From sequence record MT446411.1: a stretch of DNA of 64,000 bases. The stretch is one strand, 5' to 3'. The notes below the pieces were generated by a model. The model was given only the letters and a program-made list of their open reading frames with translations, was not told where the DNA came from and made no database searches. How positions within the stretch are numbered: the stretch's first letter is position 1; each line of letters begins with the position of its first letter. Shown piece by piece: positions 8,551-9,526 of the stretch. The position numbers and the translations under genes are program-made. This DNA comes from Escherichia virus TH40.

Positions 8551-8797
8551 AATGCTCTTCCAGGAAGTCCAGGAGGGCCGTGGCGGAGGTAAAGATACCA
8601 CCATCAACCTTGTCTTCATCTTGATAGTCCATCACATCCAGACCGATACGTCCATCAGTTAAAGGCCATACGCTGAAAAAGTATTCGTAACGTTTTTCAA
8701 TTTCTTCAATCTTGCGAAAAATCTTTTCGATATTGTTCATAGGTTTCCACATCTTCACTACTTGAGTATAAATATAGTATATCACCAAAGAGGACAT
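8540..8797 (-). CDS. hypothetical protein
   Basis: 85-aa ORF in array. Confidence 0.45.
   Translation of the reverse strand: MSSLVIYYIYTQVVKMWKPMNNIEKIFRKIEEIEKRYEYFFSVWPLTDGRIGLDVMDYQDEDKVDGGIFTSATALLDFLEEHYVR
8767..8774 (+). promoter_or_regulatory. T4-type late promoter (TATAAATA)
   Basis: Exact TATAAATA 27 bp upstream of HNH gene ATG, followed by AAAGAGGA SD. Confidence 0.6.
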
Positions 8798-8800
8798 ACA

Positions 8801-9526
8801 ATGAATTATGCTTTAATATATGAGAATTTAATGAACCGAGCCAAATCTAGAAAATTGACTGGATACAAAGAATCTCACCATGTTGTTCCTCAATGTTTAG
8901 GCGGACCAGATACAAAAGAAAACCGAGTTGATTTAACGCCGGAAGAGCATTATCTAGCACATCAACTATTGGTAAAAATTAATCCGGAACATAAAGGATT
9001 GAAATATGCTGCCTATATGATGACTATATCACCAGATGGTCGTCGGCAGAATAATAAATTATTCGGTTGGGTAAAGCGAGATTACCTAAACAATAGAATT
9101 CAATCATCTGGAATGAAAGGGAAAAAGCATAAACCCGAATCAATTCAATTGATGAAAGATAAACGTGCTCTCCAAGAAATCACCGAAACAACTAAAGCCA
9201 AAATATCTAAAACAAAAACTGGCGTAAAATTTACAAAAGAAGCACTAAAATCATTTAATGAAAAACGTTCCGCAAACCAAGCATGGATTGATTCCAATTT
9301 TAGGCCATGTAAAGAAAGCACCAAATCTAAAATTGGCGATGCTAATAGGGGCCGTGTTTTTGATAAAAAGACCTGCCCTCATTGTGGTAAAACTGGAGCA
9401 GGTCCTAATATGAAACGGTATCATTTTGATAATTGCAAATCAAAAGTCACCAAATGCGACCTGCCAGCATTCAACACCAATACGACGCCACATCTCGACA
9501 ACATTTTGCCTATCGTCAACGGCTAA
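8801..9526 (+). CDS. freestanding HNH homing endonuclease-like protein with C-terminal zinc finger
   Basis: HNH motif [32 protein letters not shown]; CPHCGK...HFDNC zinc finger; opposite strand to all neighbours; ATG 8801 chosen for its SD. Confidence 0.8.

Follow-up and report, generated by a model that had tools for sequence, protein, structure and literature searches.

T4-like phages are rich in Seg and Mob endonuclease genes. We have analyzed a candidate of this kind in a stretch of 64,000 nucleotides (nt) from Escherichia virus TH40 (sequence record MT446411.1), referred to as the window throughout, where a predicted HNH homing endonuclease is encoded on the plus strand between pseT and a homologue of cd.4. 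Among the closest systems described is that of T4 MobE, an enzyme that nicks nrdB of relatives lacking the homing endonuclease gene (HEG-less relatives in the following) and spreads by double-strand break (DSB) repair (PMC2790892). The two proteins share a homologous N-terminal HNH region, and both genes are free-standing and intergenic, lying between genes of nucleotide metabolism, nrdA and nrdB in the case of MobE. By analogy, one would expect the window protein to nick a conserved gene in HEG-less relatives, and its gene to be passed on along with flanking markers through DSB repair. T4 MobE, however, is a protein of 141 amino acids (aa) whose gene lacks a promoter of its own and runs in the same direction as nrdA (PMC2790892), whereas the window protein has 241 aa and contains NUMOD3 repeats as well as a CCHC finger, and its gene is located at pseT, antisense to its neighbours and behind its own late promoter.

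A second point of comparison is I-TevI, whose operator resembles its homing site (15/20 positions) and overlaps its late promoter (PMC2988022). At the present locus, too, a sequence resembling the presumed homing site abuts and overlaps the gene's own TATAAATA, with 17-20 of 22 positions matching. I-TevI differs from the window gene product in that it belongs to the GIY-YIG family and is encoded within an intron; its homing site has been mapped and its repression demonstrated, while the homing site discussed here is a prediction. A similar autoregulatory arrangement has been suggested, but not demonstrated, for the HNH enzyme I-TevIII (PMC2988022). With respect to orientation the locus resembles T4 segD, the sole T4 homing endonuclease gene that is oriented against its neighbours (PMC2988022). 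Unlike the window protein, SegD belongs to the GIY-YIG type; T4 segD is without a recognizable promoter of its own, and a SegD-like copy in phage P896 described below is co-oriented with pseT. Invading endonuclease genes may give rise to antisense transcription of their neighbours as a general possibility, endonucleases of different classes share target genes, and the targets of T4 MobB, MobC and MobD are listed as unknown (PMC2988022). As in the replacement of mobC/mobE by SegH/Hef, unrelated HNH and SegD-like genes are found at an identical junction in closely related phages, and a characteristic block in P896 pseT is kept; the locus here is pseT/cd.4 instead, and the replacement is deduced solely by sequence comparison.

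The gene call itself is not new. The orthologues VR7ORF236w, VR25_236 and SP18gp235 represent the same gene at the same site, with a protein that is 98-99.6% identical and shows no structural difference, and an identical protein is present in NCBI (P0001). Orthologues are annotated as 'putative mobile nuclease, similar to T4 MobE and RB32 ORF054w' or 'putative site-specific intron-like DNA endonuclease', and these annotations name no target, no linked pseT tract and no promoter-proximal element. Within the searchable library, our literature search returned no experimental or comparative paper on the gene or on any pseT-associated endonuclease. What we add is modest: a clade of endonucleases specific for pseT, a predicted target beside a catalytic residue, and a promoter-proximal copy of that target.

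In our assessment, positions 8741-9439 are very probably a free-standing Mob-type HNH homing cassette in the stop/start overlap of pseT and cd.4, with a target prediction that is purely comparative. Late in a mixed infection, the enzyme would nick or cut pseT alleles that do not contain the cassette, most likely at a 22-bp block beside a Mg-binding aspartate, and recombinational repair would then transfer the cassette from the donor along with the donor's version of the pseT 3' end, which is substituted and would resist cutting. More speculatively, the enzyme might also bind the copy of the block at 8747-8768 and thereby lower its own transcription. Note that late expression, the cutting of pseT and repair from the carrier are proposed on the basis of what is known for the family, and for MobE in particular.

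A cassette at the pseT/cd.4 junction

The source phage is a VR7/VR25-like T4-type member of the genus Gaprivervirus, and the 2.5 kb around the locus are 97.8% identical to vB_EcoM_VR25 and 96.8% identical to VR7. As evidenced by BLAST breakpoints against TH15 and VR5, the cassette occupies 699 nt (8741-9439, plus strand) between the start codon of cd.4 and the stop codon of pseT. In TH15, a Gaprivervirus with flanks of 95-97% identity, the homology ends at 8740 and restarts within the final pseT codons, and the same applies to VR5 and many others. Empty sites read ...TTT TAA TGA A..., the pseT stop overlapping the ATG of cd.4 (TAATG), while the junctions in the window read CAT/AGGTTT...GCAAA/TCA, with the slash at the junction, and the pseT stop is now a TGA. 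The TAATG form was found in TH15, VR5, CJ20 and others, and 21 relatives in total have an empty junction. In T4 (Tequatrovirus), Dhakavirus and more distant relatives the ATG of the next gene likewise overlaps the pseT stop, sometimes by way of a cd.5-like open reading frame (ORF). Because this stop/start overlap recurs across genera including T4, we regard the empty junction as ancestral rather than as the scar of a deletion. The cassette itself was detected in seven distinct phage records among the 308 that match the region, and thus in only a minority of relatives that are otherwise collinear. The endonuclease gene is free-standing between the complete ORFs of cd.4 and pseT, and a search of positions 8000-10500 against Rfam with E values up to 1 matched no family, group I introns included.

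Besides the window, the carriers at this site are VR25, VR7, TH57, PSD2001, SP18, 212 and P479, with an intact ORF in all of them. Their inserts are 98.0-99.4% identical to the window at the DNA level in 7/7 cases, while identity drops to 77-80% in the cd.4 region of five of the seven and to approximately 78% in the pseT body of four. For the encoded proteins, identity falls to 78-79% in PseT versus 97-99.6% in the HNH protein. The left boundary of high identity coincides with the cassette edge, and the right boundary is located inside pseT: against SP18, the window has only 3 mismatches over 9440-9529 and dense divergence beyond. Against TH15, 21 of the 33 mismatches in pseT are concentrated in 9441-9512 and 12 are spread over the other 836 nt. 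Judged by these alignments, the window pseT combines a body of the TH15 type with a 3' end that is linked to the cassette, with the switch between 9512 and 9529. In all cases some 75-90 nt of the pseT 3' end accompany the cassette, and this linked segment looks like a co-conversion tract left behind by homing, such tracts being part of the known background to homing (PMC2988022). The original prediction had proposed a free-standing element that invaded an intergenic site, so that relatives without it should exist. This is what the empty sites, including that of the sister phage TH15, the better conservation of the insert than of its flanks and the co-inherited pseT tract all indicate.

The association with pseT extends well beyond the orthologues. 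Genomic contexts were looked up for eight relatives at 56-81% identity, Salmonella phage KM16 and seven metagenomic contigs, and in 8/8 cases the gene faces a PNKP gene in convergent orientation, adjoining its 3' end or overlapping it by 4-36 nt. The persistence of this arrangement over about 40% of protein divergence argues for a family that is specific for the 3' region of pseT.

The closest non-orthologous relative, at 81% identity, is found in the metagenome contigs L032 (2870-2965) and L033. It has a GTG start, and a GCGAAAAGCGAAAAGC repeat ahead of the HNH motif contains a disruption of the frame, with the called protein of 196 aa starting MPKCLGG. This is probably a decaying copy, the other explanation being an assembly error common to two samples.

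The same junction holds other small genes in other phages. Many HEG-less relatives (TH54, RZ, L016, L018, L020-L022; in T4, L034 7806-8033, the gene is cd.5) contain an ORF of about 190 nt between pseT and cd.4 that is cd.5-like, begins MAWHHETW... and has an ATG that overlaps the pseT stop. These small extra ORFs mark the junction as a general hot spot for the gain and loss of small genes. In the related Gaprivervirus P896 (L003), the identical cd.4/pseT junction, equivalent to 8741-9439 of the window, contains a SegD-like (GIY-YIG) gene on the minus strand (2338-3104). This gene has a TATAAATA of its own that is part of a hairpin (CTCCATAGATA...TATCTATGGAG), and GGAGGTG-ATG comes next. The P896 pseT retains the DDRQNVV block described below but ends in empty-type codons (AAGDF with a TAG stop), and the left junction in P896 (CATAGGGGTTTCCA) is similar to the left cassette edge of the HNH gene (CATAGGTTTCCA). 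Taken at face value, the P896 sequence suggests that the Seg gene has replaced an HNH cassette. The locus also illustrates the competition of two endonuclease families for one junction.

The predicted target in pseT and its copy at the promoter

The tract that travels with the cassette raises the question of where the enzyme might cut. The most informative part is a substituted block in codons W287 to D279 of pseT (9488-9512, minus strand; GAT AGG CAA AAT GTT GTC, D-R-Q-N-V-V), our prediction for a disrupted recognition site by which the carrier genome would be protected. As many as 10 of the 33 mismatches between the pseT genes of the window and TH15 fall into 9497-9512, covering codons D279-V284. 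All nine genomes with an endonuclease gene at the junction (eight HNH, one SegD-like) have GAT AGG CAA AAY GTT GTC at this position (DDRQNVV), while in 21/21 HEG-less alleles examined the sequence is GAY GAC CGN (A/T/G)CN CAA GTN GTN (DDR[TSA]QVV); the forms are CCACATYTCAACNACTTGAGT in HEG-less DNA and GATAGGCAAAAYGTTGTC in carriers. The block adjoins an aspartate that corresponds to Asp278 of T4 Pnkp, a ligand of the Mg2+ in the phosphatase (PMC3592404).

We considered whether the DDRQN form was simply a native polymorphism of SP18-type pseT, and this was rejected, as the HEG-less phages TH54, CJ20, RZ and Yersinia P8 combine SP18-type bodies with DDR[TS]Q. The presence of the ordinary block in these four alleles means that the substitution is linked to the endonuclease gene rather than to the lineage of pseT, and the association was seen in two different pseT backgrounds. 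Distant carriers change the same two codons in different ways, to DT in KM16 and to NS in L032, and this pattern fits selection for resistance better than simple hitch-hiking. From these comparisons the most likely target is the 22-bp pseT sequence that encodes residues ~280-287, approximately 50-70 bp from the insertion point.

This sequence has a counterpart within the cassette. A 22-nt element, CCACATCTTCACTACTTGAGTA, is located at the left cassette edge (8747-8768, plus strand), where it overlaps the late promoter TATAAATA by 2 nt, and we consider it a candidate operator or an insertion relic. Compared with the plus strand of the pseT block in HEG-less phages, it matches at 19/22 positions in VR5 and TH54, 18/22 in T4, RZ and Yersinia P8, and 17/22 in TH15 and CJ20, and in these seven alleles the distance between the match and the pseT stop is always 47-48 nt. 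In the controls, the best match on the opposite strand reached 13-14/22 and the window's own substituted allele 14/22; scores of at least 18 were seen in 0/2000 dinucleotide shuffles and in none of 2095 other 60-nt segments of the genome. The element is unique in the 64-kb window. With the T4-type target sequence as the reference, the copies of SP18 and TH57 score 20/22. The element is kept against the promoter in KM16 (18/22) and in L032 (CCACATCTCAACTACCT-TATAAATA), and it can be recognized in part in L040, L031 and L043. As it marks the same 22 bp as the substituted block, it is an independent pointer to the target, and this holds for an operator and a relic alike.

As to the origin of the element, it is quite conceivable, if short of probable, that it is a relic of the founding insertion, a piece of the pseT 3' end captured during aberrant repair at the cut site. 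In favour of this, the element and the pseT block are direct repeats with identical orientation, the element being situated at the far cassette edge, and it went undetected in L039, L041 and L042. A relic is nevertheless at odds with the retention of 18/22 positions in KM16 and about 14/15 in L032, whose endonucleases are 69% and 81% identical and whose surrounding non-coding sequence is different, as well as with the maintained position against the late promoter. It also requires an additional deletion, that of the 48-nt pseT tail, since neither the window nor L032 has this tail to the left of the element.

More tentatively, the endonuclease might repress its own late promoter with the target copy serving as operator, as I-TevI does. 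If this reading is true, autoregulation of the I-TevI type would extend from an intron-encoded GIY-YIG enzyme to a free-standing HNH enzyme of the Mob type, phage homing endonucleases would use target mimicry for self-repression more widely than demonstrated to date, and the target of a homing endonuclease could be read from the sequence of its promoter region alone.

Several observations weigh against a mobile element with its target in the distal block. The element is not recognizable in the three distant members just named, lineages for which there is no HEG-less allele for comparison. Instead of being a recognition site, the substituted block could be a marker that has hitch-hiked, with a second substitution cluster at the junction (9441-9470) as an alternative target. 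A target at a distance of 50-70 bp would be unusually close, and the characterized free-standing endonucleases of T4 cut hundreds to thousands of bp away from their own genes (PMC2988022). In a Pfam search with the window protein, the threshold for HNH was not reached and only NUMOD3 was matched. Furthermore, as T4-like phages recombine freely, the mosaicism of the flanks could in part reflect ordinary recombination around a vertically inherited gene.

Intron-encoded enzymes cut within ~25 bp of their insertion site, and following this model the target could be the pseT/cd.4 junction itself, that is TAATG and the last pseT codons, which the insertion destroys, with the block at 9488-9512 as a hitch-hiking polymorphism. 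The cluster beside the junction (9441-9470, minus strand; AFGDF-TGA versus A/N-H/A/S-GDF-TAA) does account for 11 of the 33 mismatches with TH15 and recurs in the comparison of SP18 with TH54. The phenylalanine at position -4 of pseT, present in 6/10 HNH-carrying lineages and 0/21 HEG-less alleles, and the TGA stop are found only in alleles with the HNH gene. We consider a junction target unlikely nonetheless, since the promoter-proximal element matches the distal block and not the junction, P896 with its different endonuclease has an empty-type junction end (AAGDF) yet a substituted distal block, and three carrier lineages have changed the same two distal codons in different ways.

Finally, strictly vertical inheritance of a domesticated or no longer mobile nuclease, lost by deletion elsewhere and set in a mosaic of ordinary T-even recombination, is improbable: the accidental 29-codon extension of the gene and the apparently frameshifted L032/L033 lineage, according to which decay does occur in the family, speak in its favour, but the empty junction is a precise TAATG across several genera including T4 and as such ancestral, the identity boundaries match the edges of the cassette in four or more flank backgrounds, and the ORF is intact in all eight carriers.

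For the homing cassette, the linkage of the block, the limits of the co-inherited tract and the promoter copy converge on one 22-bp sequence in pseT, and this provides a concrete prediction for an enzyme of the Mob family.

The endonuclease and its domains

The HNH homing endonuclease ORF extends over 8801-9526 on the plus strand (241 aa plus stop) and is intact in seven other phages, with proteins of 96.7-99.6% identity. The product is matched by PHROG 655, 'homing endonuclease' (4e-63), and T4 MobE aligns to its first 74 residues with 50% identity (E 7e-25). The HNH beta-beta-alpha-metal catalytic core comprises residues 24-54 (8870-8962), as delimited by invariant residues, a structural model and the Pfam HNH matches of relatives. 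In an alignment of 93 homologues, H26, H27, N41 and H50 are invariant and H54 is nearly so. This agrees with the H-x(13-14)-N-x(8-9)-H spacing of catalytic His (general base), structural Asn and metal-binding His/Asn that characterizes the superfamily, and the motif aligns residue for residue with the HNH domains of IscB and McrA. Among 23 close relatives, Pfam assigns HNH to 14 and NUMOD3 to 18. The core is followed by a helical linker with NUMOD3-type DNA-binding repeats, residues ~108-185 (9122-9355), where NUMOD3 (PF07460) matches residues 128-141 of the query with 22.0 bits against a cutoff of 20.4. A C-terminal CCHC zinc finger, C192-x2-C195 ... H208-x3-C212 (9365-9436), was assigned from the model and from its four ligands, which are nearly invariant in the same 93 homologues.

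The AlphaFold2 model has a mean pLDDT (predicted local distance difference test) score of 86.5. Its HNH core consists of strands 24-27 and 42-45 and helix 47-60, with a pLDDT of ~97, the middle region is helical, and the zinc finger forms a beta-beta-alpha unit (189-191, 198-200, 202-209). A sequence search of the PDB returned only weak matches to the HNH motif (E 0.07), a Foldseek search of the model against the PDB found nothing below E 0.7, and an NCBIfam search of the product found nothing meaningful. The family assignment is thus drawn from sequence rather than from fold searches. Within these bounds the data support the product as a Mob-type HNH homing endonuclease, a known kind of protein with a predicted activity. 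The textbook HNH motif, the CPHC...H..C finger and the kinship with Mob/Seg-type enzymes that had been proposed for this protein were all recovered, the last in the form of homology to MobE along with the match to PHROG 655.

In a sister group at ~40% identity (P0028, P0029, P0042, P0046), the same HNH N-terminus is combined with three CPHC...H..C fingers, two extra copies of the zinc finger replacing the NUMOD3 region, a case of modular swapping of DNA-binding units. Short N-terminal fragments that are 59-62% identical to residues 1-93 only occur in RB68 (KM607004.1 31961-32239), ESh32 and others, where they are annotated as hypothetical proteins; the ESh32 fragment adjoins the gene for the DNA end protector. 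Such fragments may be what truncation has left of related endonuclease genes located at other sites.

Expression signals and the overlap with pseT

The maximal ORF, 8762-9526, opens with a TTG and would encode 254 aa. We have taken the ATG at 8801 as the start, since it fits the promoter, the Shine-Dalgarno sequence and all homologues. The stop at 9526 and the length of 241 aa given in the original prediction agree with this start, and its coordinate 8762, which belongs to the maximal ORF, is corrected accordingly. An exact match to the T4-type late promoter consensus, TATAAATA, is located at 8767-8774 on the plus strand, 27 nt upstream of the ATG, and a Shine-Dalgarno sequence GAGG at 8790-8793 precedes the ATG by 7 nt, so that the proposed exact late promoter and ribosome binding signal are both in place. 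Note that the octamer occurs nine times in the window, with 4.2 copies expected. In relatives with proteins of 58-81% identity, the same place is held by either TATAAATA or CATAAATA.

On the right, the insert is flanked by pseT, the gene for polynucleotide kinase/3'-phosphatase and the predicted target gene (9440-10348, minus strand, 302 aa; Pfam HAD_PNKP 3.6e-56, PHROG 505 1.7e-122). Its left neighbour is a cd.4 homologue of 66 aa (8540-8740, minus strand), assigned through PHROG 2360, which covers residues 20-85 of the 85-aa maximal ORF, and through the annotation of VR7 and VR25. An insertion between pseT and cd had been proposed; this is right on the pseT side, but the other neighbour is cd.4 and not cd. 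Of the plus-strand ORFs with 70 aa or more between position 1 and ~25,000, the HNH gene alone is not nested within an ORF of the minus strand. Two further plus-strand ORFs are antisense within a ligase gene that is cut by the edge of the window. In the annotation of VR25, the orthologue is the only plus-strand coding sequence of a 27.5-kb minus-strand block, and both the ORF scan and this annotation bear out the lone position of the gene in an array of some 25 kb on the opposite strand. Since the HNH gene runs counter to all of its neighbours, late transcription from it must produce RNA antisense to pseT, and early transcription of pseT-cd.4 must in turn pass through the HNH gene in antisense. 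A scan for promoters and terminators showed no convincing plus-strand terminator after the HNH ORF. On the minus strand there is a weak terminator-like hairpin with a T-run (AGGTCGCATTTGGTGACTT TTGATTTGCA) at the pseT stop (9444-9462), which arises from the cassette-linked AFGDF-TGA form of the pseT end.

The HNH ORF and pseT are convergent, and their overlap at 9440-9526 was measured as 87 nt or 29 codons, in agreement with the ~29 codons initially proposed. On the protein level this corresponds to a read-through tail, residues 214-241 (plus strand), antisense to the last 29 pseT codons. A functional dual-coding region was considered and rejected. Relatives end 2-12 residues past the zinc finger, and more distant ones stop with DNCKSKT* right at the pseT stop; the KM16 and L032 proteins extend 12 codons into the antisense of pseT, compared to 29 in the lineage of the window. 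The first in-frame stop of the HNH ORF is the antisense (TAA) of a TTA leucine codon in pseT, and the length of the tail depends only on the position of the first such codon. In the AlphaFold2 model the tail is a coil with a pLDDT of 55-61. The overlap is thus probably an accidental read-through after the native stop was lost in the window lineage, with a tail that is probably not functional. A selfish insertion on the opposite strand can in this way create an 87-nt antisense gene overlap by accident.

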